Below, piece by piece: positions 31,784 through 52,942 of a DNA stretch of 64,000 nt; position 1 is the first letter of the stretch; each line of letters starts with the position of its first letter. The notes below the pieces were generated by a model. The model was not told where the DNA came from. It did no database searches and saw nothing but the letters and a program-made list of their open reading frames with translations. The stretch covers positions 560 to 64,559 of the forward strand of contig CAZMOX010000004.1 of assembly GCA_964567895.1 (NCBI GenBank). The letters are read 5' to 3'. A program made the position numbers and the translations under genes. Origin of the DNA: an uncultured Spirochaetales bacterium. Its GTDB lineage: Bacteria > Spirochaetota > Spirochaetia > JABMQR01.

Positions 31784-32344
31784 TTACAATCTAGTACTAG
31801 TGTTTTTTGCACTCTTTTTTACCTCTTCATATTCAAAATTAATAAGAAAAGTTTTATCGTTTAACAGGAATTTGACTTTTACTCTGCGTTTTCGCCTGTC
31901 CACTTTTATAATTTTCCCTTCACAGTCTTTCAGAGGTCCTGACAGGGGTATGACTTTATTGTTTTTATCAAAGGATACAACTGATCTTTTGGTTGTTTCA
32001 CCAGTAGCAGTAAGTTGTATCAGCAGCTCTCTATCATTGTTTGAAAGTGGAATCAGTTCTCCTTTATCATTTCTCATATATCTCATAAAACCCGGAATTG
32101 ATCTAAGCAGGGTTCTGTCTTCCGGTTCAATACAATCACTAACCAGGAATATATAACCGGGGAAAATTGGTTTTATCACTTGCTGTTCTTTGCCCTTTTT
32201 TCGAATGGTTAATTGGCGTTTTGGTACTACAAGCTGAAATCCCGGTTTGCTGCCTGCCAGGTTTTTTACATGAATGATATAGGTCTCTTCTTTTCCGGTA
32301 GCTACCTGAATCAGATAGATTGCACTATTAGAAATATTATTCAT
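31784..32344 (-). CDS. NusG-family paralog (NGN + KOW; LoaP/UpxY/RfaH-like specialised antiterminator)
   Basis: NGN-like N-terminus IYLIQVATGKE...PGYIFLV and KOW GPLKDCEGKIIKVDRRKRRVKVKF. It is too short and divergent for housekeeping NusG. Confidence 0.6.
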   Translation of the reverse strand: MNNISNSAIYLIQVATGKEETYIIHVKNLAGSKPGFQLVVPKRQLTIRKKGKEQQVIKPIFPGYIFLVSDCIEPEDRTLLRSIPGFMRYMRNDKGELIPLSNNDRELLIQLTATGETTKRSVVSFDKNNKVIPLSGPLKDCEGKIIKVDRRKRRVKVKFLLNDKTFLINFEYEEVKKSAKNTSTRL

Positions 32345-32371: not shown

Positions 32372-32878
32372 TTAGGAAAGTTGTTTTTCCATCCACTGAA
32401 TATCACGGTATTTTCCGAACTTAAAACCAGATTCAGTAAACAGACCCACTTTTTTAAATTGGAATTTGTTATGCAGAGAAACAGATACAGGATTAGGTAT
32501 GGTTATGCATGCATATACTCTGTGGATGTCGGTCTCTTCCAGGAGTGAGAAAAGTTTTGCATAAAGATTGAATCCTGCTCCGCGGCCGGTATAATCCGGA
32601 TGCATATAAATACTGGATTCAACTGAGGTTGCATATGCAGCTTTTTCTCTAAAGATGCTGGTACATGCATAACCGATTACCGTATTGTCCAGCATAGCCG
32701 TAATCAGTTTATATCTGCTTTCAGGAGTGTGATAATTAAACCACTCCTGACGATTCTCAATAGTTACCGGTTCAAGGTCGAACGTGGCAGTAGTATGCCT
32801 GATGTAGTGATTATAAATTGAGGTAATATCCGGAATGTCAACGTGTTCGGCATATCTATAGTGTATTGAATTTTCCAT
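32372..32878 (-). CDS. GNAT-family N-acetyltransferase (phosphinothricin-acetyltransferase-like)
   Basis: Acetyl-CoA binding region HPDYTGRGAGFNLYAKL; 168 aa. Confidence 0.8.
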   Translation of the reverse strand: MENSIHYRYAEHVDIPDITSIYNHYIRHTTATFDLEPVTIENRQEWFNYHTPESRYKLITAMLDNTVIGYACTSIFREKAAYATSVESSIYMHPDYTGRGAGFNLYAKLFSLLEETDIHRVYACITIPNPVSVSLHNKFQFKKVGLFTESGFKFGKYRDIQWMEKQLS

Positions 32879-33055: not shown

Positions 33056-34120
33056 TTGAGTCAGACTAGCAGGGATCAGTTAAATCTGGAAGAGTCCCAA
33101 GATCTCTATTTTTCTCTTCAGAAATATCCATGGGTTTACCCGATAATAATGATGATTCTGTCATTTTTAGATTCTGGCTTACTGCTTCTCTATTATAAAT
33201 GGCAATATCTGGAAGGAAGAGCAGTTCTGCCGCAGCTTCTGGCTTTACATGTTGTAGTATTTATCATTGTTGTTATAATTCGGCGAAGCTCATCACCACA
33301 GACAAGGGAAATATCACCCCTTATGTTTCTCATTCTTCCCGGTGTAGGGAGCTTATTGTTCAGCCTTTCCTATCTGGTTCTCTATTTTGTAGGATCCAAG
33401 TTTGTGAAAAAAGAGCTGAGACACTCCTATATGGATGAGGATGTAAAATATAATAAAGATGTATCAATTGATTTTAAACAAATCGGACGATTGATGGATA
33501 TGGCGGGAGTTTTCTCATACTCTGACTCCTCCCACAAAAAAGATATGATTGTTGACCTGTTATCCGGAGATATTTCTGCAAACTCAAAACTGCTGAAACA
33601 GGGTTTAGGAGACAAAGATCCTGAAGTGGTGCATTATACTGCATCAACGCTTAATTATATGGAAGAAAAGTATGAAAAAGCCATTCAGACAGCAAGAGCT
33701 GCCTGTGTGGAGAAACTTACACGAAAAAAACTAATGAATGTAGCCGTATTATATGAAGATTATATGAATTCAGGACTGCTTGAAGACGATATACTTCCAA
33801 TTTATCGAAATAGTTATTTGCAGGTTCTTGAGCTGGTATTAAAGGAGTTCGGCAGGGATGAAGAGATCCTGGAATTGCTGATTCAGGGCTATCTGATCAA
33901 TGATCAACCCCATGATGCTGAAATTATTTTGCTGGAAGCTGTTTCTATTTTTCCTCAAAGTCTTATTATTAGATTTGCACAAATGAAGTTCTACTACAGT
34001 TTGAATAAGCTGAAAGATCTTGTGAGTATAGCCCAGATCATTCTTGATATGCCCCTTGAATTAACTAAAGAGCAGAAGGGGATGATTGACTTTTGGCTTC
34101 AGGAGGATCATCCGGCATGA
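33056..34120 (+). CDS. pelE: PelE-like inner-membrane protein (N-terminal TM helices + helical/TPR-like cytoplasmic domain)
   Basis: Three hydrophobic segments followed by a ~230-aa helical domain. The gene immediately precedes pelF and its stop overlaps the pelF start. TTG start 6 nt after GGAGGG. Confidence 0.45.
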   Translation: MSQTSRDQLNLEESQDLYFSLQKYPWVYPIIMMILSFLDSGLLLLYYKWQYLEGRAVLPQLLALHVVVFIIVVIIRRSSSPQTREISPLMFLILPGVGSLLFSLSYLVLYFVGSKFVKKELRHSYMDEDVKYNKDVSIDFKQIGRLMDMAGVFSYSDSSHKKDMIVDLLSGDISANSKLLKQGLGDKDPEVVHYTASTLNYMEEKYEKAIQTARAACVEKLTRKKLMNVAVLYEDYMNSGLLEDDILPIYRNSYLQVLELVLKEFGRDEEILELLIQGYLINDQPHDAEIILLEAVSIFPQSLIIRFAQMKFYYSLNKLKDLVSIAQIILDMPLELTKEQKGMIDFWLQEDHPA

Positions 34121-35637
34121 GTAGAAGAAGCAAAGCCCTATTCAGAGGAAAGTTGGATCCGAAAAAAACCCGGCAGTGGGGTAAACCTGGAATTGATCTT
34201 GAGCCCGATGGGAAAACAATTTGCTTAATTCTTGAAGGAGCATACCCTTATGTTGCAGGAGGTGTTTCATCATGGATTCAGCAAATGGTTACAAGGATGA
34301 AAGATTATCGTTTTAAAATACTTACTATAATGGCATCTGATGAAAAAGATATGGAGCTTAAGTATACATTTCCGGATAATATAATAGAGTTCAGAACAAT
34401 TTTCCTCTATGAATATCTCAATGTTAGGCAGGAGCGCTTTCGGAAAAAACTTCTACTTACCACAGAAGAGAGAGAGCAGCTTCGAAAATTCATTCTATTT
34501 GACAGAAGTGTTGACTGGGATATGATTACAGATATTATTTGCCGGGAGGATAAAATAGGAAATACTATTGATTTTCTTATGAGCTATGATTTTTTTGATG
34601 AACTCATTGTTCTCTATCATACAAAATATGAGGGTGAAGGATTTAATATTTTCTTTTGGACATTCCGTTCAATGTTGGCAACCTTGATCTGTGTTATGCA
34701 GCAGCCGATGCCCAATGCAGATCTGTATCATGCTATATCTACGGGATATGCAGGTCTTATGGGATTGATTGCAAAAAACTCCTATAAAAAGCCCTTTCTC
34801 CTTACTGAACATGGGATTTATGCCAGAGAGCGGGAGGAAGAACTGCTAAAGGCAGATTGGGTTAAAGGAGTATACAAATATCTTTGGATAGACTATTTCT
34901 ACTTTTTGTCGGTTGGTGCATATAAGACCGCAAACAAGACCATAGCACTATTTCGTCTCAACAGAGAAATTCAGGTCTCTTTGGGAGTAACCCCGAGGAA
35001 TGCTCTGGTAATACCAAATGGGGTAGATGACAGCACTTTTCCGAAGGAGAAAGAGGATCATCCTGAGATTAATGTAGCGGCAATTCTCCGGGTTGTACCC
35101 ATTAAGGATGTAAAAACACTTATACGTGCTTTTAATTTCGTAGTAAGGGCATATCCGGAGGCGCGGCTGCTGTTAATCGGACCCGCAGAAGAGGATGAAG
35201 AGTATGCAAAGGAGTGCATAAATTTAATTGATGATCTGGGATTGAAAGAGGTCATTATATTTACCGGACAAGTAAATATAAAGGAGTATATGCCTAAAAT
35301 TGATATGATAGTTCTGACTTCCATATCAGAAGCACAGCCCCTTGTCATTTTGGAAGCTTATGCCTGTGCTACAGCAGTTGTTGCAACGGATGTTGGTTCA
35401 TGCCGGGAGCTTGTTGAAGGTGATGGTGATGAGTTTGGTTTTGGTGGAATTATCACAAAACCGGTATCCCCTAAAGAGACAGCTGAGGCGATAATGAAAT
35501 TGTGTGCAGATCCTGAATTGAGAAAAGAGTATGGAAACAACGGATTGGCAAGAATTAGGAAATTGTACAATAGTAAGAATGTCTTTAGAACTTATGCACG
35601 AACGTATGAACAAATATTAGAGGATGCGACACTTTAG
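34117..35637 (+). CDS. pelF: PelF-like GT4 glycosyltransferase (DUF3492 N-domain + GT1/GT4 C-domain)
   Basis: ICLILEGAYPYVAGGVSSWIQQMV matches the PelF N-terminal signature. C-terminal GT4 fold motif EAQPLVILEAYACATAVVATDVG. AGGAGG RBS; ATGA overlap with the upstream stop. Confidence 0.85.
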   Translation: MSRRSKALFRGKLDPKKTRQWGKPGIDLEPDGKTICLILEGAYPYVAGGVSSWIQQMVTRMKDYRFKILTIMASDEKDMELKYTFPDNIIEFRTIFLYEYLNVRQERFRKKLLLTTEEREQLRKFILFDRSVDWDMITDIICREDKIGNTIDFLMSYDFFDELIVLYHTKYEGEGFNIFFWTFRSMLATLICVMQQPMPNADLYHAISTGYAGLMGLIAKNSYKKPFLLTEHGIYAREREEELLKADWVKGVYKYLWIDYFYFLSVGAYKTANKTIALFRLNREIQVSLGVTPRNALVIPNGVDDSTFPKEKEDHPEINVAAILRVVPIKDVKTLIRAFNFVVRAYPEARLLLIGPAEEDEEYAKECINLIDDLGLKEVIIFTGQVNIKEYMPKIDMIVLTSISEAQPLVILEAYACATAVVATDVGSCRELVEGDGDEFGFGGIITKPVSPKETAEAIMKLCADPELRKEYGNNGLARIRKLYNSKNVFRTYARTYEQILEDATL

Positions 35638-37368
35638 ATGGCTGGAATTGGATTTTCACTTAGAAAAATGATGAAAGAAGGGGATAATTACGGCACGCAG
35701 GTTCGTGCCTGGTTTCATACCTCTATTGTCGCTGCCGGTCCCTGGATTATAAGTATTGTAACGATAAATTTGCTTATGATTTTCTCACGCAAGTGGGATG
35801 TTCCCTATGCTGAACGGGAACTTATTATAGCAGCAGTTGTCTATTCAACGCTTTTCTCGCAGATTCTCACAGCACCATTTCAGATGCTGATTACCCGATA
35901 TATCGCAGATAGAATTTACACCAGTGAATATGAGTATATTAAACCATCATTCTGGGGACTCACTCTAATAATGCTTGTGCTAAGCTTTGGTTTGGCTATT
36001 TTTTTTTATCGTGGCAGCGGGCTTCCTAATGAATTTATCTATGTTGCTGCTGCTTTATTTATCTTATTGTCAATTCTCTGGATACTTAATGTCTATTTAT
36101 CCACTATGAAAAATTTCAAGCTTATCACTTTTTCCAACTTGTTAGGGGCAATAATTACTTTTGCTGTAATTCTATTTTTAACTAATAATCCAATTAAATT
36201 TCCAGAGATGCAGGGGGCTACAAATTTGCTCCTGTCCTATTTAATAGGTATGTTTGTAACACTGTTATTCTTATTAGTTGTTCTGATGTCTGAATTGGGG
36301 GAAGACAATGGAAAGGTTTTTCACTTTATCCGTTATTTCCATGCAGTGCCCAGTCTTTGGCCTATCGGTTTACTTTATACCGCTTCATTATGGGTTGATA
36401 ATATAATTATGTGGTTTTCTCCCATAAGTTTGAATCTGTATGGTGTCTACCGGTATGCACCATTTTATGATGTAGCTTCATTCTATGCCTATCTTTCCAT
36501 ATTACCCTCTATAATGATGTTTATGGTTTTAATAGAGACCGACTTTTATGTGAAATGCCGTGAATTTTATCTTGCAGTAATAGAGAACGGCCCGCTAAAA
36601 GAGCTTGAATCATTTGCTAAAAGAATGCGTGAATCTTTATTTCAGAATGTCTTAACAACCGTTGAACTGCAGTTATTTATTACTCTACTGATAATAGCAC
36701 TCTCTTCAACACTTTTTCCATTGCTTAATGTTCCTGATGCTACCAGGAGAATCTTTGTCATTTACTCTTTGGGGGCAATGTGTAACTCATTTATTCTCAT
36801 TTTTTTGCAAGTACTTCTCTACATAGGTGAACGTAACAGAGCTATGTTTCTTATGGGACTATTCTTTTTCTCTAATTTTGTTTTTACACTGATAAGTATG
36901 AATATGGGGGAGAACTTCTATGGAGCTGGTTTTTTTGTTTCTTCCTTCCTAACCATGATTGCAGGGGCTTTTGTCTCCTATAACAGCTATCATCGGGTTA
37001 TTCAGCATACCTTTATGACACAGCCTGTATTTACCCGGGAGAGAGAAAAAGTATTTGAAAGATTAGAGAAGTGGGTTGATGATCGAATGGTTGCAAAGGA
37101 TTCATTTGAACTAAAGTTTCTCAGGCAGAAAGACAAGCAGAAAACAGCAGCTGCTGCCACTGTGAAACAGAATTCTTATTCAGGGAGCAAGCGTGCCTCT
37201 GCTCACTCTGGTCAACAGGCTGCTGGTTATGGTTCTGGTATGACTAAAACTGAAAGTAATTGGGAGACTCCCTATCGTAAGCCTTTTGGTAGTGATAAGA
37301 GTCCTGTGATGGCAACACGATCTCAACGATATGTACATAAATATTATAAGTTTGGGAAAAAGAGTTAA
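35638..37368 (+). CDS. pelG: PelG-like polysaccharide exporter (12-TM MOP-like) with ~110-aa basic low-complexity C-terminal extension
   Basis: N-terminus MAGIGFSLRKMMKEGDNYGTQVRAWFHTSIVAAGPWIISI closely parallels the PelG N-terminus (MAGIGFELRKIL...). Multiple TM segments. Confidence 0.85.
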   Translation: MAGIGFSLRKMMKEGDNYGTQVRAWFHTSIVAAGPWIISIVTINLLMIFSRKWDVPYAERELIIAAVVYSTLFSQILTAPFQMLITRYIADRIYTSEYEYIKPSFWGLTLIMLVLSFGLAIFFYRGSGLPNEFIYVAAALFILLSILWILNVYLSTMKNFKLITFSNLLGAIITFAVILFLTNNPIKFPEMQGATNLLLSYLIGMFVTLLFLLVVLMSELGEDNGKVFHFIRYFHAVPSLWPIGLLYTASLWVDNIIMWFSPISLNLYGVYRYAPFYDVASFYAYLSILPSIMMFMVLIETDFYVKCREFYLAVIENGPLKELESFAKRMRESLFQNVLTTVELQLFITLLIIALSSTLFPLLNVPDATRRIFVIYSLGAMCNSFILIFLQVLLYIGERNRAMFLMGLFFFSNFVFTLISMNMGENFYGAGFFVSSFLTMIAGAFVSYNSYHRVIQHTFMTQPVFTREREKVFERLEKWVDDRMVAKDSFELKFLRQKDKQKTAAAATVKQNSYSGSKRASAHSGQQAAGYGSGMTKTESNWETPYRKPFGSDKSPVMATRSQRYVHKYYKFGKKS

Positions 37369-37421
37369 TTTCAAAAATCCAAGAAATTAAATCTGTGATT
37401 TAATTCGATTTTTGAAATTAA
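37365..37421. terminator. Long nested AT-rich palindrome between convergent pelG and the 618-aa gene; candidate bidirectional terminator
   Basis: Outer 15-nt arms TTAATTTCAAAAATC / GATTTTTGAAATTAA, plus inner arms GAAATTAAATC / GATTTAATTC around a tgt loop. The left arm overlaps the pelG stop codon. Confidence 0.35.
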
Positions 37422-37462
37422 CTAAAAAATTCACATCCATCAAAAACTTCTGACGTTAATTA

Positions 37463-39319
37463 TTAATCATGGACTTTAATTGTTACATCTGGTTTGGTTA
37501 TTTCGAGAATATACAAAAAATCCCGTTTTAAAGGCTTTAAAATTCCTCCCTTGATACTCGCTATTGGTGACTCACAGCGGAAATAGAATTTTTGCGGCAG
37601 TAGAACATTTTCCAATCGGATAGATATAGTGTTCTCATCACGGATTGTATAGAAACGCATATCCTCATTTTGAATATACTCATTGTAAGCTTCGATATTT
37701 GTTTTTGGTTCCAGAAAAGGATAGTTCTGAGACAGTGCCTGAAATGTATCTTCAAACTCTCTAAACAGCGGCCCCCATCGCAGATCCTCAGATCTTTCCG
37801 GATCCAGTATCTCTATGGAATTGATTGAATGGTTTACCATACCAAATTCAGCCACTCCATTTACCATCGCCCAAAGTATATCAGGTGTAATCTCATAACC
37901 CTGACTGAATTTTGGGATATCATAGACTCCGGTTATATCCGGGTCAGGACCAAATTCCTGAATAAATACGCCATCATCCTGATCAGGATTAGTATAGACT
38001 CCCGAAAATACCTTTAATTTGGGAAAAGTATTGAGAACAGCCTCTTTTGTATATTTTCCAATAAGATTGGATGGAGAAGAATATGTGTAATACTCAATTT
38101 CTCCAAAAATAGAATCCAGAGTATCTCTGAGCTTATCAAGGCTGGCTGTCATGTCTGATTCATCTTTCCATAATGATGGATATAAACTTAGTGACGGATT
38201 ATTGGTAATTTCACCAGGTGTTAGTAAGGGTGTATGGCTGTAACCCAGTATTCCCAGCTCTCCATCTGATGAGCTGAGCATTGCACCGAATTGACTGATG
38301 GTGTCCAGGTTGGTTTTTGGTTCGTCCGGCAGGGGATTTCCTGTATTTGTAGTATAGGAACCAATTGTCATTCCGGTAAAAGCCAAATTGTATCTGTTTT
38401 TTAAGGTTAAAAGATCTGTCCACCAGATTTCACGATAAAACTTACCATTATCCCGCAGGTAATCATTATAAATATGATCTGTTATGCCCATAGGAATAGG
38501 AGCTGGGAGATCCTCAATATTAAAAATTTTATCTGCATGTATATATGAGAGACTATAATCATTATTCAGATGTAAAAGTTGAAGGAGCAGTCCGCGATTT
38601 ATCTTGTCCAGAAAGAGTGTACTGTTTGTATAGAGTACCGATCCTTCTCCCCAGGAATTAAGCCAGATAAGGGGAATGCCTTCAGATGATACAGCAATTG
38701 GGGTTACTGAATCACTGAGGGTGATATTCAGACTGGAAGAAGTAATAAAATCTGAATCGATAGTCATTTCATCCATCATAGGGAAAAAAGGTGCTGAAAA
38801 TGTTATTCCAATGGGATTTTTTGATAGGGTTCCCTCAATTTTCTGTATGCCGGCAATTTCTGCAAGAGCCGGGTGAGTGGTGCTGACCAGTATGGATATG
38901 TCTGCACCGAGAGAGATAATATTTACCATATAATCAATATCTTTCTGTGTGAGGATGTCTATATCATCTACAGCAATAATGATCGTATCCCCGATCTCTA
39001 TCTCACTGATTGTTTGTGAGCTCTCTTCTGAATTAATATCAGCAAGTAGGTATGGTATATGAGTATTTCGGAAAATTTGTTTGAGATGTTCTGTGACAAT
39101 AATTGATTCATCGTTGATTGATGAATACAGGATTACATACTGATCAAAATTTATAGGTATGTTTTCCGAGGTGAAGACACTTTCTTCTTCTACCTGCTCA
39201 ACAATCCTGGTAGAGTTTGACCGGAATATTGAGGTGAAGTTTACTATTTTGAATACCTGCAGAATAATTCCGGTTGCCAGGATGATCAGGACAACTATCA
39301 AAAACCTGAATTTTATCAT
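37463..39319 (-). CDS. Exported/membrane-anchored 618-aa protein of unknown function in the Pel locus (possibly a YdaL/DUF2194-like polysaccharide-modifying protein)
   Basis: N-terminal TM anchor MIKFRFLIVVLIILATGIILQV followed by a large hydrophilic domain. Its start overlaps the pelD stop by 4 bp, which suggests a shared operon. Confidence 0.5.
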   Translation of the reverse strand: MIKFRFLIVVLIILATGIILQVFKIVNFTSIFRSNSTRIVEQVEEESVFTSENIPINFDQYVILYSSINDESIIVTEHLKQIFRNTHIPYLLADINSEESSQTISEIEIGDTIIIAVDDIDILTQKDIDYMVNIISLGADISILVSTTHPALAEIAGIQKIEGTLSKNPIGITFSAPFFPMMDEMTIDSDFITSSSLNITLSDSVTPIAVSSEGIPLIWLNSWGEGSVLYTNSTLFLDKINRGLLLQLLHLNNDYSLSYIHADKIFNIEDLPAPIPMGITDHIYNDYLRDNGKFYREIWWTDLLTLKNRYNLAFTGMTIGSYTTNTGNPLPDEPKTNLDTISQFGAMLSSSDGELGILGYSHTPLLTPGEITNNPSLSLYPSLWKDESDMTASLDKLRDTLDSIFGEIEYYTYSSPSNLIGKYTKEAVLNTFPKLKVFSGVYTNPDQDDGVFIQEFGPDPDITGVYDIPKFSQGYEITPDILWAMVNGVAEFGMVNHSINSIEILDPERSEDLRWGPLFREFEDTFQALSQNYPFLEPKTNIEAYNEYIQNEDMRFYTIRDENTISIRLENVLLPQKFYFRCESPIASIKGGILKPLKRDFLYILEITKPDVTIKVHD

Positions 39320-40602
39320 TCGATCTCCTCAACAGAATCCTTTAAGGAAGATCTTATTCTATTTGAAACTAAATCGTAATTCCCCTTACCTGTTGCTGGC
39401 AGCAGTATTTCAAGTATATTATGAATCTCATCATAACAAACAAAATCTACGCTTCTTAGAACTTTTCTCATGGAAAATATAACCGTCTCTATATCTGTGG
39501 TTAATACATTATATTTACCATAGCAATATGGCAGCCCATATTTAGTGAGTCGAATCTCCTCTTCTTCCAACTGCATATCAAACTGATTCTTTTTTAACAA
39601 ATTGGACCAGCTTACACCGGTTACGTTATACTTTCTGTCAATATCAATCGCCTGAGAAAGAGCTTTATTGATCCATTCAGTTATAACACAGAAAACACTA
39701 AAACTGTATTCAGTAATATGCTCAAATTCTATTGCATCAATATTAATAAGACCAATTACTGTACCCTCATTAATAATTGGAGCACTAAACAGCGGGAAAT
39801 CCTCGTTCTCCTCTTTTGTCCACCTGACAGGCTTCCTGGATTCCACCAGTTCCATATATTTAGGTTCATCTACAAATCTGATAGAACTTCTTTTTTTGCC
39901 ATATTCACCATAAATAAGCTTCAGGCGTAAATACCCGCCGCTTTCAAGAGTATATATTGCTATAGTAGTAGCCTTAATAAATTTATGCAGAACTCCAATT
40001 GCCTCTGTGTATACTTTTTCCGGATTTGTTGTCTGAAGTGATGCAGCAATTTCATAGAGAGAGAAGATACTGTATTCTGACCCTACTATCTGTTCTTTTA
40101 GTTCATTGTACATGAGAATTGTTTTGCGGTAATCTTCCTCAAGTTTAGTATACTCTTCCAGAATTTCGCTATTTGCAGTCTTCATAGTTCTTACATTTCT
40201 GGAGTAGGTATCCCTGACGCGTCCGGTTGTATACCCTGCAATGAAAAACATAATAGGAAATTTATAGTAATCAAAGACCTTGAAAAAGAGCACTAAGTCC
40301 AGACCTTTATAGAGATAAGCTACTATATAAACAGTTGAGGCAATTAATGCAGCAAACAGGCCGGACAGATAACCATGACGAATAGCGATGATTGCAGTAA
40401 GCACAAACAACGGGTGAAGATTCATGGTCAGAAACTGGTTCTGAATATTCGGTACAAAGAAAAAGAAGAGCATCGTTGCACCGTTTGTTATGAGAACCTC
40501 TATCAAGATGCCGGTGATCGTAATAATGAACTCATGTTTCGATTGTATCTCCCAGCCGGGAAATAATCTATTATATATTTTTATTTTGCTTTTTTCTGCC
40601 AT
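39316..40602 (-). CDS. pelD: PelD-like c-di-GMP receptor (4 TM + GAF + degenerate GGDEF with RxxD I-site)
   Basis: Four N-terminal TM helices and a GAF-like middle region. The C-terminal GGDEF-like fold lacks the GGDEF motif but retains RSVD (an RxxD I-site). Confidence 0.65.
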   Translation of the reverse strand: MAEKSKIKIYNRLFPGWEIQSKHEFIITITGILIEVLITNGATMLFFFFVPNIQNQFLTMNLHPLFVLTAIIAIRHGYLSGLFAALIASTVYIVAYLYKGLDLVLFFKVFDYYKFPIMFFIAGYTTGRVRDTYSRNVRTMKTANSEILEEYTKLEEDYRKTILMYNELKEQIVGSEYSIFSLYEIAASLQTTNPEKVYTEAIGVLHKFIKATTIAIYTLESGGYLRLKLIYGEYGKKRSSIRFVDEPKYMELVESRKPVRWTKEENEDFPLFSAPIINEGTVIGLINIDAIEFEHITEYSFSVFCVITEWINKALSQAIDIDRKYNVTGVSWSNLLKKNQFDMQLEEEEIRLTKYGLPYCYGKYNVLTTDIETVIFSMRKVLRSVDFVCYDEIHNILEILLPATGKGNYDLVSNRIRSSLKDSVEEIE

Positions 40603-40694: not shown

Positions 40695-42047
40695 TTAACT
40701 GCTTATTGCTTCTGCCTGCTGTTCATTTGCCTCTCCACGCTTAACTCCGCCCATAATGAAGTAGGCAATAACCATACAAACTGCCGCAAACAGGAAAATC
40801 GCTCTGAATCCGAATAAGTCGATAAACCCGCCGGTAATTGGCGGTGCTATTATTGAGGCGAGCTGGGAAAAGAAGTAGTACAAACCGGTATAAATTCCCA
40901 TATCACTATAGGTTGCCATTTGCCAGAGCATAGGAAATGAGTTTGTGATAATTGAAACCCAAAACATTCCAAAAAAGAACATAAGTACCCAGAAGGTGAT
41001 TTGTCGGAGAAATGGGCTTAATCCCAATGCTTTGGTAATCGGATCATGTAAGAAAACGAGGAGAAGAACTCCTGTAAGAAAAAGCAGTGCAGTTCTGATT
41101 GTGACTTTTCTACCGCGTCTGTGGGCAATTATGCCTGAGGGGATTGCAAAGATTGCATAAGCAATACCCACCATTCCGGCTGCAAAGGCAGCTGTTCCGG
41201 AAGAGGTAGCCAAAATCTCGGTTGAATAGAGTCCGATAAACGGCAGAACACCCTGATATCCTATGAACCAGAAAAGCAGGGAGAGTAGTATCAGCAGAGC
41301 ACTTTTATCTTTGGAGCCCATAATCATTTTCAGGGACTGGGAAAGGGATGTTCTTTTCTCCTGCTCCCGTTCACCATCCGCTCTTTTCCCCCGTTTCTCT
41401 TTTACAAATAAGAAGAGGAGAATTGTTGAGAGAATTACCAGTAGACCGGCAACCGGAAAGGCCAGGATTTCTTTCACTGATCCGTGTCCGGGAATATTTA
41501 CTACTACATTCATCAACTGTGCAAGCCCGATAGTTCCGACTATCGATGCAATTCCACCCATAGTATTTATTACCCCATTAGCTTCGGATCTGAGCTCGCC
41601 GGGAATCATGTCCGGCATAAGAGCAACGACAGGACCACGAGCGGATTGTTTGAAAATATTCAGGATAAAGATAGAGATGATTAGAGCGGTGAGAGTACTT
41701 AATGCAGTGAACGGGATTATTCCAAAGGCAATAGCTGTTAAGGGAAGTGTGCTTATTATATAGGGCATTCTGCGGCCTATAGCAGTCCTTGTTCTATCTG
41801 AGAGTGCTGAGACAATAGGGATTAGCAAAATTGCAAATACATTATCAAGAGTCATAATTGTTCCGATTAATCCTTTTGATTCTATGAATTTACTGAGAAA
41901 AATGGGTACATAGGTATCATACAGCGGATCCATTAATCCCATGGTAAAGAATCCCAGACCGATGAGGAATGTTATACCGTAATAACCCTTCAAACCTGTT
42001 TTAGTCTCTGCTTTCTCTTTCATTTGGTTCTCCTGCACTTGTTTCAT
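40695..42047 (-). CDS. MFS transporter (GPH/LacY-like sugar or glycoside:cation symporter type)
   Basis: 12 TM segments with MFS loop motifs (GRRMPYII). Confidence 0.75.
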   Translation of the reverse strand: MKQVQENQMKEKAETKTGLKGYYGITFLIGLGFFTMGLMDPLYDTYVPIFLSKFIESKGLIGTIMTLDNVFAILLIPIVSALSDRTRTAIGRRMPYIISTLPLTAIAFGIIPFTALSTLTALIISIFILNIFKQSARGPVVALMPDMIPGELRSEANGVINTMGGIASIVGTIGLAQLMNVVVNIPGHGSVKEILAFPVAGLLVILSTILLFLFVKEKRGKRADGEREQEKRTSLSQSLKMIMGSKDKSALLILLSLLFWFIGYQGVLPFIGLYSTEILATSSGTAAFAAGMVGIAYAIFAIPSGIIAHRRGRKVTIRTALLFLTGVLLLVFLHDPITKALGLSPFLRQITFWVLMFFFGMFWVSIITNSFPMLWQMATYSDMGIYTGLYYFFSQLASIIAPPITGGFIDLFGFRAIFLFAAVCMVIAYFIMGGVKRGEANEQQAEAISS

Positions 42048-42178: not shown

Positions 42179-43264
42179 ATGAAACAAGAAAAAAAACATA
42201 CGCTATCCAGATCCTGTATATTGAGGGAGCAGGAAGAGCTGGAATCACTACTCAACCTATCTCTGCGAAGTGAAGAAAAGGAATGGTTTCGTGCCGAAAG
42301 AGGCAGAATGCCGTTTTTGTTACCATCCTATTATGCAGGGTTAATGAATATATCTGATCCCCATGATCCTATACGGTTACAGTCAATTCCCACGGACAAA
42401 GAGTTTAACATTACTCCGCAGGAGTTAGCAGATCCGCTTGGGGAAAAGAATTTTATGCCCGTAGATTTTCTTATCCATAGATATACATCCCGGGCACTAT
42501 TTCTTTCAACAGGAATATGTGCAATGTACTGCCGTTATTGTTTTAGGAGAAACTATACCGGGAAACCGCAAATTCCAACCGGGGAGCAGATAGTGAGGGC
42601 TGCACAGTACCTCAAAGATCATACGGGAATAAAGGAGCTGCTGATCAGCGGGGGAGATCCTCTTACCCTGTCCCTTGATGCATTGGATCGTTTACTTGGA
42701 ATATTCAGAGAGTATCGTTCGGATATAGTCTTCAGAATTTGTACCCGAATACCAGTAGTTATGCCGCAGATGATAACAGAGGCATTGGTTGAAATATTGG
42801 CTAAATATCGAAAAAACGGATTGTATGTAATAACGCAATATAATCATCCTATTGAACTCTCCTCTGAAAGTACGGGAGCAGTACGACGTATTTTGGATGC
42901 TGGAATTCCTGTATTGAATCAGACGGTCCTTCTGAAAGGGGTAAATGATGATGCAGGTGTACTTGGAGATTTAATGAATGGACTTGTTGGTGCAGGAGTA
43001 ATTCCCTATTACCTGTTTCACCCGGATATGGCTGAAGGTATATCTCATTTTCGTATTCCTCTAAAGAAAGGACTGGCTATTTTTAAACAGCTTACGGCGA
43101 AACTTTCACGTTTGGCACTTCCGGAATATGCTGTAGATATACCGGGTGGATGGGGGAAAGTAAGTCTGTCAGCTAATGGAATAATAGATAGTATTGATAA
43201 TACCTATAAGTTGAGAAATGGTAGTGATCAGATTTTCACCTACATCGACACCGTTATTGAATAG
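42179..43264 (+). CDS. epmB: KamA-family radical-SAM lysine 2,3-aminomutase-like enzyme (EF-P beta-lysylation EpmB type)
   Basis: CAMYCRYCFRRN radical-SAM cysteine motif and a KamA-family C-terminus. Genomic linkage to efp and epmA. Confidence 0.75.
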   Translation: MKQEKKHTLSRSCILREQEELESLLNLSLRSEEKEWFRAERGRMPFLLPSYYAGLMNISDPHDPIRLQSIPTDKEFNITPQELADPLGEKNFMPVDFLIHRYTSRALFLSTGICAMYCRYCFRRNYTGKPQIPTGEQIVRAAQYLKDHTGIKELLISGGDPLTLSLDALDRLLGIFREYRSDIVFRICTRIPVVMPQMITEALVEILAKYRKNGLYVITQYNHPIELSSESTGAVRRILDAGIPVLNQTVLLKGVNDDAGVLGDLMNGLVGAGVIPYYLFHPDMAEGISHFRIPLKKGLAIFKQLTAKLSRLALPEYAVDIPGGWGKVSLSANGIIDSIDNTYKLRNGSDQIFTYIDTVIE

Positions 43265-43688
43265 TTGCCGGATATTTCCCATCAACAATATTCTGGATTG
43301 TAACACTTGCAAAATATTTCCGCATAACATTATATGTATGCCTCCAGAAATAACATGCGGTACATTCATCAGCGTAATCGCATTCCAAATGTTTCTGATC
43401 ATCAAGCACAGAACAGGGGGTTATGAAATATCCTTCATCAATAGCCATGAAAATATCATCAATTGAGACATCTGAAGGGGATTTGATAAATGCAAACCCA
43501 CCGCCTGGTCCACGGGTTGAGGTTATCAAATCAGCCTTTCTCAATCTAAAAAAGATCTGTTCAAGGAATTCAGGGGAGAGACAGGTCTGTTCTGAAAGTA
43601 CTCGTATTGAGATGGGTTTTTCTGATTTATTTTTAACCATTTGAAGAATTGCCCTAAGTGCATATCTACCTTTTGTTGTAATTCTCAT
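43254..43688 (-). CDS. Rrf2-family (IscR-like) Fe-S-binding transcriptional regulator
   Basis: MRITTKGRYALRAIL HTH start. Cys ligands CSVLDDQKHLECDYADECTAC. The 3' end overlaps the epmB 3' end by 11 bp (convergent). Confidence 0.8.
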   Translation of the reverse strand: MRITTKGRYALRAILQMVKNKSEKPISIRVLSEQTCLSPEFLEQIFFRLRKADLITSTRGPGGGFAFIKSPSDVSIDDIFMAIDEGYFITPCSVLDDQKHLECDYADECTACYFWRHTYNVMRKYFASVTIQNIVDGKYPATIQ

Positions 43689-43858
43689 AATATATCCCCG
43701 CAATATTTCTAAGTTTTTAATTATATTGCTTACTAAAAATGCATAACATTCTTCAAATTCTGATTCAAATCATTAACAGGGTAATACAAATAGTCTATTA
43801 AGTAAATGATTGTAATGGTAATGTAACACTAATTCGATAAAAATAACGCGATTGCTTG

Positions 43859-44422
43859 TTATTTATTGACACGTTCAAGATACTCTCTGGTCTCGGTATT
43901 TACCAGAATCCTTTCACCTTGTTTAATAAAAATGGGGACTTTTACTTTCAGGCCGGTCTCTGTAACAATTACTTTTGTTGCTCCAGTTACGGTATCACCT
44001 TTAATAGCATCCTGTGCTTCAGCTACTTTATAAATAACTTTATAGGGTATTATAATATCGAGCGGGGTGTCTCCCCAGAAACTTATTCGGTAGGTTTCGC
44101 CATCTTTCATAAGAAATTGGTAATCCTCGAAGGATGCCATGGGGATTTCAAACTGATCGAATGTAACCGTATTCATGAAATGATAGTTTTCACCATCATT
44201 ATACAGATACTGACTGTCTATATCGTCAACGGTGATATCTTCAACTGAATCCTGTGTTTTCATAGTTTCCCGAAGTACCCGACCGGTGCTCGGGCTTTTC
44301 AACTTTGCACGTACAAAGGCTGATCCTTTTCCGGGGTTAACAAATTCTCTTTCTACTACGATAAAAGGGGCGCCCTTAATCAGGAGTGCCATACCTTTTT
44401 CTATCTGGCCTGCTTTGATCAT
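43859..44422 (-). CDS. efp: Elongation factor P
   Basis: NPGKGSAFVRAKLK loop with the modifiable Lys; 187 aa, three OB/KOW-like domains. Confidence 0.9.
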   Translation of the reverse strand: MIKAGQIEKGMALLIKGAPFIVVEREFVNPGKGSAFVRAKLKSPSTGRVLRETMKTQDSVEDITVDDIDSQYLYNDGENYHFMNTVTFDQFEIPMASFEDYQFLMKDGETYRISFWGDTPLDIIIPYKVIYKVAEAQDAIKGDTVTGATKVIVTETGLKVKVPIFIKQGERILVNTETREYLERVNK

Positions 44423-44500
44423 GTTGTTTAGTCCTTATATAATTGTTCTATTGTTTTTACCACTGAATCCAATTTTGCAAGATTGAAATGGAAAAAGAGG

Positions 44501-45490
44501 CTAAAGTGTAGCAGATAACGGGAATAAAATCACCCCCTCAATAGTATCATATCCTCCTAACAGCATGAGCAATCTATCCAACCCCAGGGCTGTACCTGAG
44601 CACGCTGGAAAGGGTTTATCCGGATTGTTAAATAGGTGGTGATATGTATGAGGGATGTCAGGAATTGCTGCATTGGGGACATCGGTTCGTGAAGCAATTG
44701 CGGCCGATTCCTCACGAAAAAATTCCGCAATTAAATCCGGATTAGTCTCTTCTGTATAACAGTTTGCAAGCTCAACACCTCCGGCATACAGTTCCCAACG
44801 CTCTTTATAGGGAGATTGTGCTTTGTTTGATGCAAGGCAATGAATCTGTGCGGGATAGTCTGTAATTATCAAAGGCCGATCCTGCGGAATATAAGGTTCA
44901 ACTAATGTAAGAAAAATTCGATTGAAGAGTGATTCCCATGTTTCAGGGGTGTCAGATTCAGACAGGCCGATTCGGGATGCTGCTGATTTCAGCTTTCCCA
45001 AAGTCTGGAGTTTGTCCAAATCGATTCCTGCATGGGAAAAACAGAGGTCATGCATCGATTCAATCCTGAAGGGAGGCAGCAGATGCTCAGGTGTACCCGG
45101 TGGTGCAACTGCAGAGAGGTACTCTTCTGTGTGAGCGATTGAATCTCTATAATCTGCATCAATCGTATACCACTCGAGCATGGAGAATTCAGGATTGTGG
45201 TAGGTTCCTATCTGCTCACTATTCCTGAAACATTTATTAATCTGGAAAATACTTCCGGATCCATCAGCCAGCAACTGTTTCATAAATACTTCAGGAGAAG
45301 GAATTAGCCAGCACAAGGAGGATGAATGAAAGGGGCTGGCGAAAGATGTTTCGAAGACGTGAATTGCCGGTTCCGGAATGAGTCCTGCGGCAATAGTCGG
45401 TGTTTCAACTTCCAGATACCCTTTTCCGGTAAACTGTTTCCTTGTATTGGCATACAAATGGCTGCGCTGTAAAATACTCTCTCTGTTCAT
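44501..45490 (-). CDS. epmA: EF-P lysine beta-lysyltransferase (class II LysRS paralog, GenX/PoxA)
   Basis: Class II aaRS catalytic core without an anticodon-binding domain (GYLEVETP...EFSMLEWY). Adjacent to efp. Confidence 0.85.
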   Translation of the reverse strand: MNRESILQRSHLYANTRKQFTGKGYLEVETPTIAAGLIPEPAIHVFETSFASPFHSSSLCWLIPSPEVFMKQLLADGSGSIFQINKCFRNSEQIGTYHNPEFSMLEWYTIDADYRDSIAHTEEYLSAVAPPGTPEHLLPPFRIESMHDLCFSHAGIDLDKLQTLGKLKSAASRIGLSESDTPETWESLFNRIFLTLVEPYIPQDRPLIITDYPAQIHCLASNKAQSPYKERWELYAGGVELANCYTEETNPDLIAEFFREESAAIASRTDVPNAAIPDIPHTYHHLFNNPDKPFPACSGTALGLDRLLMLLGGYDTIEGVILFPLSATL

Positions 45491-50227: not shown

Positions 50228-51070
50228 ATGTTTACACAAACAGTTCCTGAAAATACCAGATTTTATATTCTCCGGAATTCAAGACTTCTGGAACGTCAAA
50301 TGTATTCGGTACTATTTGAGGGGACTCCGGTAGAAATGGCTATAAAGGCAATTTCTGCTTATCAAAATCTTGACGGAGGTTTTGGGAACGGGATTGAACC
50401 CGATCTTCTGACCCCGGTAAGTACCGGTATCGGTATGGAAACTGCTTTTTATTACCTGGATATGCTGACCAATAAAATGCATTGTATCGATCAAGTCAAA
50501 CCTCTGCTGCAGAAGGCTAGAGAATGGGTTGAACATACTATAACTGAGAGCGGAATTATCCCTTTTACTCCGGAGGATGTTCAAACGTATCCACATCAGG
50601 TATGGTGGCTCAACTCTGATGAAACACGAATTTTATCTCTGGCCGGATATTTGGCAAAATTCAATATGCCTCTTCGTCAACGTGCGAAGAAAATCGTGGC
50701 AAACTTTGCTGACACTCTTGCTATTCCGGAAGTTCTCACAGAATACAACTATCCCCTTTTTGTCTATGCAGTAGATGAGACGTCTTTCAGCCGCTGGGAT
50801 CAGGTTCTTGATGTTCTCCAGCAGAAACTGACTGAGCATATATATGAGGAGAGAGAAACCTATTTCTTATTAACCCGCTACTGGTACCATTTTATTGATA
50901 TGATGCCTGAGGAACTCGTAGACAGACAAATAGAACGCTATTTTGAATCTATAGAGGAAGATGGAGGTTTGCCGAATCCCTACCCTGAACTTCCCTGGTG
51001 GAGGCCGATATTCACTCTGGATTATCTCTTGATTCTCAATAGGATGGATCTTCTTGATCGGTTAAAATGA
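50228..51070 (+). CDS. Hypothetical protein with prenyltransferase/terpenoid-cyclase-like alpha-alpha-toroid repeat motif
   Basis: AISAYQNLDGGFGNG resembles the QxxDGGWG repeats of the prenyltransferase/squalene-cyclase superfamily. 280 aa, otherwise unassigned. Confidence 0.35.
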   Translation: MFTQTVPENTRFYILRNSRLLERQMYSVLFEGTPVEMAIKAISAYQNLDGGFGNGIEPDLLTPVSTGIGMETAFYYLDMLTNKMHCIDQVKPLLQKAREWVEHTITESGIIPFTPEDVQTYPHQVWWLNSDETRILSLAGYLAKFNMPLRQRAKKIVANFADTLAIPEVLTEYNYPLFVYAVDETSFSRWDQVLDVLQQKLTEHIYEERETYFLLTRYWYHFIDMMPEELVDRQIERYFESIEEDGGLPNPYPELPWWRPIFTLDYLLILNRMDLLDRLK

Positions 51071-52942
51071 GTGTCCCGAATGTATAACGAAACAATTTTT
51101 CCCCTGTTCTTTTGCTCTGAGCAGGGCGGTATCGGCATATTGGATTAAACGGTCAATATTTATAAACCCGTTCTCATGAACCGCAATTCCAATTGAGCAG
51201 GTAAGCTGTCGTTCGCGGGATATTACTACCTTATGGTTAACCATATCGCTCAGCATCGAAGTTGCCGAAGCATTAAAAGAATCGAGAATATTCAGAATCC
51301 TTTGAGAAAAATTTGCTGCACCTGCTGTATCTGTTTTAGGCAAAAATATCACAAATTCATCTCCACCCATACGAAAAATAGTATCAGATTTTCTGCTTAG
51401 CTCTGATAGTACCTCAGCAAAAATTTTCAGGATCTTATCCCCGGCTTCGTGGGAAAAAGTATCATTATAATACTTAAAATTGTCCAGATCCAAGTAGAGT
51501 AGGGAAAAATAGGTTGAGTTTGTCGTATAGTAGCGGTTGTATTTTGCTGTCTCTTCTTCTGATCTTCGCTGAAGTTCCGTTCTGTTCCAAAGATTTGTTA
51601 ACTCATCTTTTGTGGCCATTAGCAGCAGCTTGCTATTTAGCTCACTGAGCTGCCGGGTTCGTGCAAGTACCTTATTTTCCAAATCTTTTGTTGTCTCGGA
51701 TGCGATTTTTAATGCATGCAGAAACTTGTAAGAAAACTCATTTGAGTGCGTGATGATAAAAAATGTTAATCCGAATGCACTTAATTCGGCAGCAAAAAGA
51801 TTTGTTGTACCGGTAAAATAGTAGATAATATCATTAAAAACAGCCAATGCCAGAATAAATCCGCCCAAAAGAATAATTCCTGATGTCTGTTCCTTTTTAA
51901 ACCAGGAAAAGAACAATGCAGTAAGCCAGTAAACAGCAAATATTACCATCAATATATTAAAGGAGAGGAGGCCATGATTATAGATGCGAATAGGGAAAAT
52001 AATTATAGCCAGAGAGTAGGCAGAAGAGATTCCAATAAATATTTTTTCAGCTATGGTATGGATCAGGTTGGGAAATGCATGTTTACTATAAAGAAGGAAC
52101 ATGCAGAAAGTTAACGATATAGATAGATATTCAAGTTTCAGCTGCAGCCAAGTGGGAATAGTGGGAAAATAGAAGGTTAATATCGTGTTCACCGTTATAG
52201 TTCTTAAAGAAATTAAAATACAGAGAACAGAAAAGTAGAGGATACTTCTATCTTTATTGTTTTCACTGTAGAAAAAGATCATGAAGAGTGCAGTCATACA
52301 GAGAATTCCCACCAAGAATAGGGACGTGCTGTGTGAAACGATCATTATCCGGTTTATTTCAGCGGGTAGGCCAAAAATAGGAGCTTTTCCGAAACCGCTG
52401 AAAGGGTGGGTAAAATTGCTGATAGTAAACACAATATCAGCTTGCGGTTCAGGGCAGTAAAAAGTAATAATCCTATCTGAAAAACGTGGGTAGTGGGTTT
52501 CTTTACTAATTCCAAAAGTTCCGGCTTTAGCAACCTGAATACCATCCACATACATGGTGTATGCAGTATAGACATTATCAACGGCAATACTGTAGTAGCC
52601 CGGTTCCGGCAGGATCAATTGAATCTGGTAGGCAGCATACCCGAAAGATTTAAATTTTTCTCCCTCATCATTGAGAGAGAGGGTTGTCCAGTTTGAGGGG
52701 ACTTGTATGTAAAGCGGTTCAGTTGAAGTGTTCCATTGGCCAAAATCGGTCAACTGATCAGGGTAAATTTCCCATTCTCCCTTCAACAGCGTAGGTGATA
52801 TTGATGTATATGAATATTCTGAAAAATCGATTATACCCTTCTCTGCAGATTTTACATTGAGATTCAGTCCAAAATTAAATACAACACTAAAAACAGTTAC
52901 CGCAAGTAGTATAAAACCCAGAAAAAGTACAATTTTTCTCAT
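51062..52942 (-). CDS. Diguanylate cyclase (GGDEF) with 7TMR-DISM extracellular and 7TM sensor domains
   Basis: Signal/TM, then a ~180-aa periplasmic beta-rich domain and seven TM segments. C-terminal GGDEF domain with intact RMGGDEFVIF and the upstream RxxD-like context. Confidence 0.8.
   Translation of the reverse strand: MRKIVLFLGFILLAVTVFSVVFNFGLNLNVKSAEKGIIDFSEYSYTSISPTLLKGEWEIYPDQLTDFGQWNTSTEPLYIQVPSNWTTLSLNDEGEKFKSFGYAAYQIQLILPEPGYYSIAVDNVYTAYTMYVDGIQVAKAGTFGISKETHYPRFSDRIITFYCPEPQADIVFTISNFTHPFSGFGKAPIFGLPAEINRIMIVSHSTSLFLVGILCMTALFMIFFYSENNKDRSILYFSVLCILISLRTITVNTILTFYFPTIPTWLQLKLEYLSISLTFCMFLLYSKHAFPNLIHTIAEKIFIGISSAYSLAIIIFPIRIYNHGLLSFNILMVIFAVYWLTALFFSWFKKEQTSGIILLGGFILALAVFNDIIYYFTGTTNLFAAELSAFGLTFFIITHSNEFSYKFLHALKIASETTKDLENKVLARTRQLSELNSKLLLMATKDELTNLWNRTELQRRSEEETAKYNRYYTTNSTYFSLLYLDLDNFKYYNDTFSHEAGDKILKIFAEVLSELSRKSDTIFRMGGDEFVIFLPKTDTAGAANFSQRILNILDSFNASATSMLSDMVNHKVVISRERQLTCSIGIAVHENGFINIDRLIQYADTALLRAKEQGKNCFVIHSGHSF

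Follow-up and report, generated by a model that had tools for sequence, protein, structure and literature searches.

Gene content and organization of the pel locus

We analysed a 64,000-nucleotide stretch of DNA from an uncultured Spirochaetales bacterium (contig CAZMOX010000004.1, positions 560 to 64,559; this whole 64-kb stretch is referred to below as the window), which carries a locus for a Pel-type exopolysaccharide. A check of the open reading frames (ORFs) in the window placed all five ORFs of the pel region exactly where a first-pass annotation of this DNA had placed them. These ORFs form two convergent transcription units, pelE-pelF-pelG versus pelD-pelA_DA, and the locus contains the following features.

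33056-34120, plus strand: pelE-like gene (354 amino acids; TTG start; called as an ORF, with membrane helices and tetratricopeptide repeats, TPR)
34117-35637, plus strand: pelF (506 amino acids from ATG 34117; DUF3492 and GT4 domains)
35638-37368, plus strand: pelG (576 amino acids; PF16933; ATG immediately after the pelF stop codon)
37363-37422: long AT-rich hairpin, in the 94-bp stretch that separates pelG from the convergent pelA_DA
37463-39319, minus strand: pelA_DA homologue (618 amino acids; DUF2194; match to PDB 9zau_A)
39316-40602, minus strand: pelD (428 amino acids; fold and profile matches to PelD of Pseudomonas aeruginosa)

The observed gene arrangement is far beyond chance. The pelD/pelA_DA junction is an ATGA overlap, as is that between the pelE stop and the pelF start. 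The recognition of a Pel-type locus with pelF and pelG in the first-pass annotation is borne out by the NCBIfam PelF equivalog and the Pfam PelG model, and the signature ICLILEGAYPYVAGGVSSW and the N-terminus MAGIGFSLRK, which it had cited for PelF and PelG, respectively, are present in the proteins. The protein that it had called PelE-like indeed contains three N-terminal hydrophobic helices and a TPR domain, and its gene overlaps pelF by ATGA as described. The 618-amino-acid exported ORF that it had placed on the opposite strand, overlapping pelD, is also real and encodes one N-terminal hydrophobic helix. The layout is non-canonical, as had been claimed, in that the gene order (split and convergent) does differ from pelDEA_DAFG.

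Every ORF of at least 150 amino acids in the window was assigned to families using Pfam or precomputed Pfam matches. No PelA hydrolase, PelB, PelC, or CE4 protein was found among these ORFs, with the limit that PelC comprises only about 170 amino acids and that a small, divergent copy could escape such a scan. PelB, PelC, and the PelA hydrolase were also absent from the flanks of the related loci described below. The statement that pelA, pelB, and pelC are all missing therefore holds for pelB and pelC in the window, but not for pelA, which is present as pelA_DA (DUF2194).

The 618-amino-acid protein is a PelA_DA homologue

The 618-amino-acid protein had been taken for a protein of unknown function that replaces PelA. 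A comparison with the DUF2194 model, which had been proposed as a check, yielded a match at 9.8e-80 in Pfam (residues 44-594; model positions 35-573 of 582), and PDB 9zau_A, the sole solved-structure match, was hit at 5.2e-63 (residues 115-545). The 9zau entry is the crystal structure of PelA_DA from Bacillus cereus, the founding member of both CE26 and CBM114 (Subramanian et al. 2026, PMC13254593), and the PelA orthologues of Gram-positive bacteria are known as DUF2194 proteins with an N-terminal membrane helix. The window protein shows the same overall organization, i.e. an anchor helix (residues 8-26, the single hydrophobic helix at the N-terminus) together with CBM114-like, CE26-like (beta/alpha), and beta-rich C-terminal domains.

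Since the 618-amino-acid protein is a DUF2194/PelA_DA protein, the gene content of the locus is the known Gram-positive set (the published pelD, pelE, pelA_DA, pelF, and pelG) and not a variant distinct from it, as had been proposed. That proposal, namely a new pelA-less Pel variant in which an unknown exported protein takes the modification or export role, was based on features that are real: pelB, pelC, and the PelA glycoside-hydrolase domain are missing from the 64 kb, and the gene order is not that of pelDEA_DAFG. Nevertheless, it is highly improbable, because the protein is a full-length PelA_DA homologue, which refutes the 'no pelA' part, and because the order differs from that of clostridial loci by the inversion of one block only.

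The catalytic site of PelA_DA is degenerate

Adding 25 to the chain index of 9zau reproduces the published residues D262/D263, H350/H354, P405, R458, H488, and D491. In the B. cereus enzyme, D262 is the base, D263, H350, and H354 bind the metal, and H488 is the acid; R458, D490, and D491 are also key, D490 being a substrate residue (PMC13254593). The MT1 and MT2 catalytic mutants, as well as R458A and D490A, yield no detectable Pel and no biofilm in B. cereus (PMC13254593). At the positions of B. cereus D262, D263, H350, H354, R458, H488, D490, and D491, the window protein carries E269, D270, L358, H362, K470, N500, I502, and E503, respectively. Six of the eight key residues are thus replaced (D262E, H350L, R458K, H488N, D490I, and D491E), and the residue set of an active CE26 enzyme is absent although the overall fold is present. 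This decayed site is missing from the first-pass reading of the locus.

We surveyed the family using the window protein, 160 DUF2194 members (the 150 best HMMER matches among 1.84 billion representatives, plus closer relatives), and the B. cereus fragment; 154 sequences could be scored at all eight key sites. All eight residues are kept in 114 of these 154 members, and 125 have at most one change. In 116 canonical full-length members, 53 columns reach a conservation of 85% or more; the window protein keeps 40 of them, and 12 of the 13 lost columns are located in the CE domain, mostly in or beside MT1, MT2, MT3, the R458 site, and MT5. It has kept the structural positions occupied by Gly, Pro, Trp, and Tyr. 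For comparison, a canonical spirochaete homologue retains 51 of the 53 columns.

Outside the clade of the window protein, 17 distant DUF2194 representatives (including P0084, P0096, P0101, P0128, P0143, P0154, P0174, P0177, and P0178) likewise depart from the key residues at two or more of the eight sites, at 21-25% identity, where the alignment is less secure. These sequences suggest that catalytic loss may recur in the family. In the parts of the DUF2194 literature that were accessible, no description of a catalytically degenerate PelA_DA was found.

Related loci, synteny, and host lineage

Scanning of the GTDB species representatives with a PelD profile yielded 13 loci. The eight nearest are in Spirochaetales/Spirochaetia metagenome-assembled genomes (MAGs), one of which is a complete 4.3-Mb chromosome, and the other five are from Clostridia or Bacillota, plus a MAG labelled only 'uncultured bacterium'. 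Three further loci (L021, L023, and L024, the last ending within pelG) were fetched by protein identity and, together with L007-L014 from GTDB, constitute 11 spirochaete-type loci. The exact window proteins are also found on several metagenome contigs, the largest being 65.8 kb.

As far as the contigs reach, all 11 spirochaete-type loci have the order EpmB, MFS, pelD, pelA_DA, inverted pelG, pelF, and pelE, and GNAT (the flanking genes are described below), whereas three clostridial loci (L015, L017, and L019) are colinear, with the order pelD-pelA_DA-pelE-pelF-pelG. The convergent layout differs from the clostridial order simply in that one block is inverted, and its presence in all 11 loci indicates an old and stable inversion rather than a different system.

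These relatives probably represent a spirochaete lineage. Near-identical copies of the genes have been deposited under Bacteroidetes/Bacteroidota, Candidatus Brocadiales, and Spirochaetales MAGs, and these conflicting taxa mean that at least two of the bin-level labels must be wrong. Spirochaetes are diderm bacteria. A literature search on pelF and pelG in spirochaetes returned no paper, and spirochaetes are not mentioned in the 2020 survey of pel operons.

Distribution, phylogeny, and selection on PelA_DA

The residues aligned with D262, D263, H350, H354, P405, R458, H488, and D491 (in this order) form the following signatures in the window and in the related loci.

Window: EDLHPKNE
L021: NDLHPKSE
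L007: NDMHPSSE
L008: DQEPSRGD
L009: RDQDPVTF
L024: QDQ-SSTA
L010-L014, L023, and the clostridial loci: DDHHPRHD (canonical)

Neighbour-joining trees were constructed from PelD, PelF, and PelG together and from PelD alone. The loci with degenerate PelA_DA (the window, L021, L007, L008, L009, and L024) form one clade, the canonical L023 is its sister, and all lineages deeper than L023 are canonical. A single degenerate clade with a canonical sister fits a single loss followed by drift. P0033 and P0034 were considered as second DUF2194 copies in the same genomes; this was rejected, the context of P0034 (L023) being that of a sister-lineage orthologue.

In the degenerate clade, PelA_DA is likely a pseudoenzyme that serves as a non-catalytic subunit, judging from the residues that it has lost. 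Alternatively, it could still be an active de-N-acetylase with a rewired site (E269 as the base, D270, H362, and H497 as metal ligands, and K470 in place of R458), which would yield an ordinary, partly deacetylated Pel. The equivalents of D263, H354, P405, S406, N407, and H485 are indeed retained in the window protein, three of the changes are conservative, and of the three domains it is the CE domain on which purifying selection is strongest (ratio of nonsynonymous to synonymous substitution rates, dN/dS, 0.09-0.10). We nevertheless consider a rewired enzyme unlikely. Leu stands in place of the metal ligand H350, Asn in place of the catalytic acid H488, and Ile in place of the substrate residue D490, at key positions that are 100% conserved among the 116 canonical full-length members. 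Moreover, the former catalytic sites vary between proteins sharing 79-95% identity (E/N/D, D/A/E, L/T/M, H/P, and N/S/D), which argues against a conserved rewired active site: relatives with 79-81% identity have lost D263 (to A or E) and H354 (to P) as well, and unrelated residues occupy every site in the deeper clade members, which share no common alternative catalytic set.

A second alternative is a cluster that was acquired from Clostridia and now survives as a decaying remnant; the polymer would no longer be made, and the loss of the PelA_DA site would be the first step of pseudogenization. This would agree with the absence of Pel in B. cereus when PelA_DA is catalytically dead, and horizontal acquisition would fit the position of Clostridia as the closest relatives outside the spirochaetes. 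Selection was estimated by the Nei-Gojobori method against L021 (PelA_DA 84% identical at the amino acid level) and L020 (95%). The dN/dS of PelA_DA was 0.121 against L021 (0.091 for the CE domain) and 0.155 against L020, and the values of the other Pel proteins against L021 were 0.147 (PelD), 0.116 (PelE), 0.082 (PelG), and 0.042 (PelF). The pelA_DA ORF is intact in every lineage examined. Thus, pelA_DA is under purifying selection and is not decaying, and its pseudogenization was rejected on the basis of the dN/dS values and the intact ORFs. As for the cluster as a whole, none of the five ORFs is disrupted in any lineage examined, the start and stop codons still overlap at the junctions, the five genes have dN/dS values of 0.04-0.15, and the degenerate state persists across lineages that share only 65-70% identity in PelD and PelG; a decaying remnant is therefore very unlikely.

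In all spirochaete lineages, no other Pel protein evolves as fast as PelA_DA. Against L008, for example, PelA_DA is 39% identical, whereas PelD, PelE, PelF, and PelG are 68-78% identical. The ratio of its distance to that of PelD, PelF, and PelG is about 2.0 in the canonical lineages and has a median of 2.8 (up to 3.8) in the degenerate clade. Its best-kept segment among clade members is residues 1-30, with 63-80% identity where the CBM and CE domains have 30-37%. In AlphaFold models of the B. cereus proteins, the N-terminal helix of PelA_DA docks onto PelG (PMC13254593).

PelD and cyclic di-GMP

PelD of the window has approximately four membrane helices at its N-terminus and a long connecting helix, as well as a GAF domain (residues about 180-325) and a degenerate GGDEF domain (about 335-428). 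It has no match in Pfam or NCBIfam, and a phmmer search of the single sequence against PDB returned only noise. However, an AlphaFold model based on an alignment of 20 relatives (predicted local distance difference test score, pLDDT, 80.7) retrieved chains of P. aeruginosa PelD(156/158-455) as all of its eight best Foldseek matches in PDB (E about 1e-8), followed by GAF-GGDEF and GAF proteins, and the best PDB sequence matches of the family profile are also PelD (E = 0.004). The PelD-like call of the first-pass annotation is thereby sustained. The RSVD I-site that it had reported was located at residues 383-386, and the profile alignment sets R383, D386, and R415 on R367, D370, and R402 of P. 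aeruginosa (R367-G-L-D370). The three residues are invariant in all 20 family members aligned, and the spacing between the two arginines, 32 residues, is the same as that between R363 and R395 of B. cereus PelD, in which mutations of R363, D366, and R395 abolish both the binding of cyclic di-GMP (c-di-GMP) and biofilm formation. By analogy, PelD of the window would bind c-di-GMP at R383, D386, and R415. With regard to the profile check that had been suggested for PelD and PelE, neither protein has a Pfam or NCBIfam model behind it; PelD was recovered by the fold and family-profile searches of PDB, and the family profile of PelE retrieved TPR proteins.

Approximately 10 kb from pelD (51062-52942, minus strand), the window encodes a 626-amino-acid protein that joins a 7TMR-DISM membrane sensor to a GGDEF diguanylate cyclase; the GGDEF motif is intact, and an RKSD I-site lies five residues upstream of it. 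The presence of this cyclase indicates that the organism uses c-di-GMP, and the protein is a possible source of c-di-GMP for PelD.

PelE, PelF, and PelG

PelE is a membrane-anchored TPR protein, with hydrophobic helices at about residues 27-45, 57-75, and 91-109, a disordered linker (118-151), and a TPR-like repeat region (158-348). It belongs to no curated family in Pfam or NCBIfam and gives only a weak TPR_14 match, but its family profile matches TPR proteins in PDB down to 6.6e-21, its relatives bear Pfam TPR_19, TPR_16, or TPR_14 domains, and the top Foldseek matches of its AlphaFold model (pLDDT 77.8) in PDB are generic TPR proteins. Its identity as PelE is further indicated by homology (1e-22 to 1e-30) to the gene located directly 5' of pelF in the colinear clostridial pel operons. 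The TTG/GTG start of pelE is kept among relatives.

PelF, a cytoplasmic GT4 glycosyltransferase, matches DUF3492 (1.6e-74) and Glycos_transf_1 (5.7e-29) in Pfam and the NCBIfam equivalog NF038011 with 383 bits (cutoff, 100). ATG 34117, which is preceded by AGGAGG, overlaps the pelE stop codon, and is the start in database gene calls, is likelier to be the pelF start than TTG 34093. PelG, a polytopic inner-membrane exporter with at least 11 hydrophobic segments, matches PF16933 at 9.4e-124 over residues 1-459 and covers the full model; a phmmer search of the single PelG sequence against PDB returned only noise. A C-terminal tail of about 115 amino acids extends beyond the family model. This tail (36970-37368, plus strand) is basic and of low complexity and lies outside the Pfam model. 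Stop-to-stop frames of pelG measure 1.7-2.6 kb in the related spirochaete loci compared with about 1.5 kb in most clostridial loci, indicating that the tail is lineage-specific and variable in length.

Neighbouring genes and transcription signals

The genes flanking the pel locus are the following.

31784-32344, minus strand: LoaP-like NusG-paralogue gene (186 amino acids; NF033641), divergent from pelE
32372-32878, minus strand: GNAT acetyltransferase gene, divergent from pelE (below the ArsN1/PPT acetyltransferase cutoffs)
40695-42047, minus strand: MFS transporter gene (Pfam MFS_1 and MFS_2), upstream of pelD with a 92-bp gap
42179-43264: EpmB/KamA-like radical SAM gene (set for elongation factor P, EF-P)
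43859-44422: EF-P gene (EF-P set)
44501-45490: EpmA/GenX-like truncated lysyl-tRNA synthetase gene (EF-P set)

In all spirochaete loci whose contig extends that far, the MFS gene adjoins pelD, and its product is 73-94% identical across the loci, above any Pel protein. A promoter-like site (TTGATT-17-TATAAT) is located between the MFS gene and pelD. No MFS, GNAT, or LoaP-like genes flank the clostridial pel loci. The MFS and GNAT genes are thus conserved neighbours within the spirochaete lineage only, and are at most putative parts of the Pel system.

Specialized NusG paralogues are often encoded beside long polysaccharide or polyketide operons. The LoaP-like protein barely reaches the cutoff of the LoaP-type model NF033641 (125.4 bits versus 125), compared with 59 bits for the housekeeping NusG model (cutoff, 135.7). 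Its gene lies beside pelE only in the window, L007, L008, L009, and L021, and not in the sister or deeper lineages. From this position, it may be an operon-specific antiterminator for pel. Alignment of the pelE leaders across relatives revealed a short promoter-like block in close relatives but no conserved hairpin tied to the LoaP-like protein; i.e. no target leader element was identified at the pel locus.

The hairpin at 37363-37422 has fold energies of -22.1 and -23.2 kcal/mol on the plus and minus strands, respectively (z-scores, -6.9 and -5.6), and none of 200 shuffled sequences folded equally well. On the minus strand it is followed by CUCUUUUUCC, a U-run. The consensus terminator scan did not call this AT-rich hairpin, but its strength and the minus-strand U-run make it a plausible candidate for a bidirectional terminator shared by pelG and pelA_DA. 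A promoter scan was uninformative (36 sites versus 36.2 expected), and a search of the whole window with Rfam at gathering thresholds gave no RNA family and hence no c-di-GMP riboswitch.

The EF-P beta-lysylation set (42179-45490), which is located directly beside the pel cluster, is complete and syntenic across all related loci, and an Rrf2 regulator gene sits between its genes. Elsewhere in the window, an 848-amino-acid ORF (15890-18436, plus strand) fuses a complete phosphoglycerate kinase domain (residues 22-413) to a LarA-type domain resembling lactate racemase (Lar_N, 442-635; LarA_C, 705-840). It is clustered with GAPDH-like, HpcH aldolase, fucose-isomerase-like, URO-D-like, Ldh_2, and creatininase genes, and the same cluster encodes an ABC sugar transporter, regulators of the AraC and LacI types, and three proteins with SnoaL domains. 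The cluster looks like an uncharacterized catabolic island for a sugar or sugar acid.

Proposed mode of action

The reading that we prefer is a Pel system without PelB and PelC, encoded in two convergent units, in which PelA_DA has probably been retained as a non-catalytic subunit; we assign this reading a probability of roughly 0.7. By analogy with P. aeruginosa and B. cereus, c-di-GMP would bind to the PelD I-site (R383, D386, and R415), and the c-di-GMP-bound PelD would switch on the membrane complex formed by PelD, PelE, PelF, and PelG. PelF would then polymerize a UDP-sugar, expected to be the GalNAc derivative as in the characterized systems, and PelG would carry the chain across the cytoplasmic membrane. 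PelA_DA would be anchored by its N-terminal helix, which is predicted to dock on PelG in B. cereus. Judging from its sequence, PelA_DA in the window has retained the docking helix and the fold and has lost the residues for metal-dependent de-N-acetylation; it may, for instance, grip or steer the growing chain or maintain PelG in an export-competent state. The polymer would then keep its acetyl groups on leaving the synthase, unless it is modified by an unlinked enzyme.

The last possibility, i.e. that an unlinked CE4, CE21, or second CE26 enzyme deacetylates the polymer in trans, with PelA_DA as a structural partner and the product still a cationic Pel, is a variant of the preferred reading rather than a true alternative. 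It fits every result and would explain continued synthesis despite the need for deacetylation in B. cereus. However, the search, which covered the 64-kb window and the flanks of the related loci, yielded no candidate, and we regard this possibility as somewhat unlikely. A more specific reading, which is rather less likely than not, is that the spirochaete-like clade makes a neutral, poly-N-acetylgalactosamine-like polymer, which would pass into the periplasm without a PelB/PelC channel, and that PelA_DA acts as a PelG-docked pseudoenzyme for sugar binding or gating.

Several points weigh against retention of PelA_DA as a non-catalytic subunit of a working system. Inactive PelA_DA abolishes Pel in B. 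cereus, so the system here would have to be rewired or to rely on an unlinked deacetylase. Of the six replacements in the window protein, three are chemically conservative (D to E, R to K, and D to E), and the B. cereus mutants that were tested were all alanine substitutions, so that the protein may have some remaining or changed activity. PelA_DA evolves fast even where its sites are canonical, so the acceleration in the degenerate clade is modest. PelD and PelE have no curated-model match. The assignment to a spirochaete host rests on MAG labels, and NCBI lists some of the close relatives under Bacteroidota or Brocadiales. Neither the window nor the flanks of the related loci contain a candidate for an outer-membrane export route. 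Finally, the evidence base consists of sequences and models.

Implications

In both of the characterized Pel systems, deacetylase activity is indispensable, no polymer being detected without it. For B. cereus, a feedback that runs from PelA_DA to the synthase by way of PelG has been proposed (PMC13254593). A clade that has pelD, pelE, pelF, and pelG together with a selected, full-length PelA_DA lacking the catalytic residues is a natural experiment that separates the structural from the enzymatic role of this protein, and its sequences are ready-made material for testing the proposed coupling of PelG and PelA_DA. If the clade does make a neutral polymer, the coupling of deacetylation to synthesis seen in P. 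aeruginosa and B. cereus would be breakable, and nature would have supplied, in these genes, a separation-of-function allele for PelA_DA's structural role. The locus also extends the pel clusters without PelB and PelC to a probable spirochaete lineage, which raises the matter of the destination of the polymer in a double-membraned cell. With regard to annotation, a DUF2194 gene beside pelF and pelG can be named pelA_DA, and the unnamed flanking genes pelD and pelE; the presence of the DUF2194 domain is, however, no guarantee of deacetylase activity.

Comparison with known Pel systems

The pelABCDEFG system of P. aeruginosa shares with the window the inner-membrane synthase module that PelD, PelE, PelF, and PelG form, including the fold of PelD with its GAF and degenerate GGDEF domains. 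In P. aeruginosa, c-di-GMP acts at the I-site of PelD, and the aligned residues in PelD of the window are R383, D386, and R415. Only P. aeruginosa has PelB (TPR and porin) and the lipoprotein PelC for export across the outer membrane, and its PelA is a soluble two-enzyme protein (GH166 hydrolase and CE21 deacetylase). The proteins that define this Gram-negative type, i.e. PelB, PelC, and a hydrolase-bearing PelA, are all absent from the 64-kb window.

The pelDEA_DAFG operon of B. cereus ATCC 10987 (Whitfield et al. 2020, PMC7112168) shares with the window the five gene families, the absence of pelB and pelC, and the domain composition of PelA_DA (helix, CBM114, CE26, and beta-rich domains). 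The PelD proteins share the c-di-GMP site (RxxD plus Arg) with identical 32-residue spacing. The two differ in organization, since the B. cereus genes are arranged in the order D-E-A-F-G in one operon and those of the window in two convergent units, and in their hosts, B. cereus being a monoderm and the host of the window a probable spirochaete. In addition, PelA_DA of B. cereus is an active Zn-dependent de-N-acetylase that is required for Pel, whereas six of the eight key residues are replaced in the window. Hence, the locus has the clustered five genes that characterize the Gram-positive type but neither its single colinear operon nor its monoderm host.

The nearest non-spirochaete relatives of all five window proteins are encoded by the clostridial loci L015-L019 (Tepidibacter, Alkaliphilus, and Eubacteriales MAGs), with identities of 36-40% for PelD and 47-51% for PelF. 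These loci share with the window the direct succession of pelD and pelA_DA and the pelE-F-G block. Unlike the window, they have all genes on one strand, a canonical DDHHPRHD PelA_DA, and no flanking MFS, GNAT, or LoaP-like genes.

A cluster in Fusobacterium nucleatum comprises, according to a published gene list (PMC9848294), DUF2194, pelF, pelG, and endo-alpha-1,4-polygalactosaminidase genes. As far as can be judged from its annotation and a transcriptome table, from which alone the cluster is known, this diderm has DUF2194 beside pelF and pelG as in the window, but also, on the same list, a separate gene similar to the PelA hydrolase, which the window lacks. A PelA_DA-type cluster in a diderm would accordingly not be unique to the lineage of the window.

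By gene content, the window locus is a member of the Pel clusters lacking PelB and PelC that were first described in Gram-positive bacteria. This five-gene set is known; what is new is a degenerate PelA_DA under selection in an inverted, probably spirochaetal pel cluster. The differences from the known set are the split, convergent layout, the host lineage, and the decayed catalytic site of PelA_DA.

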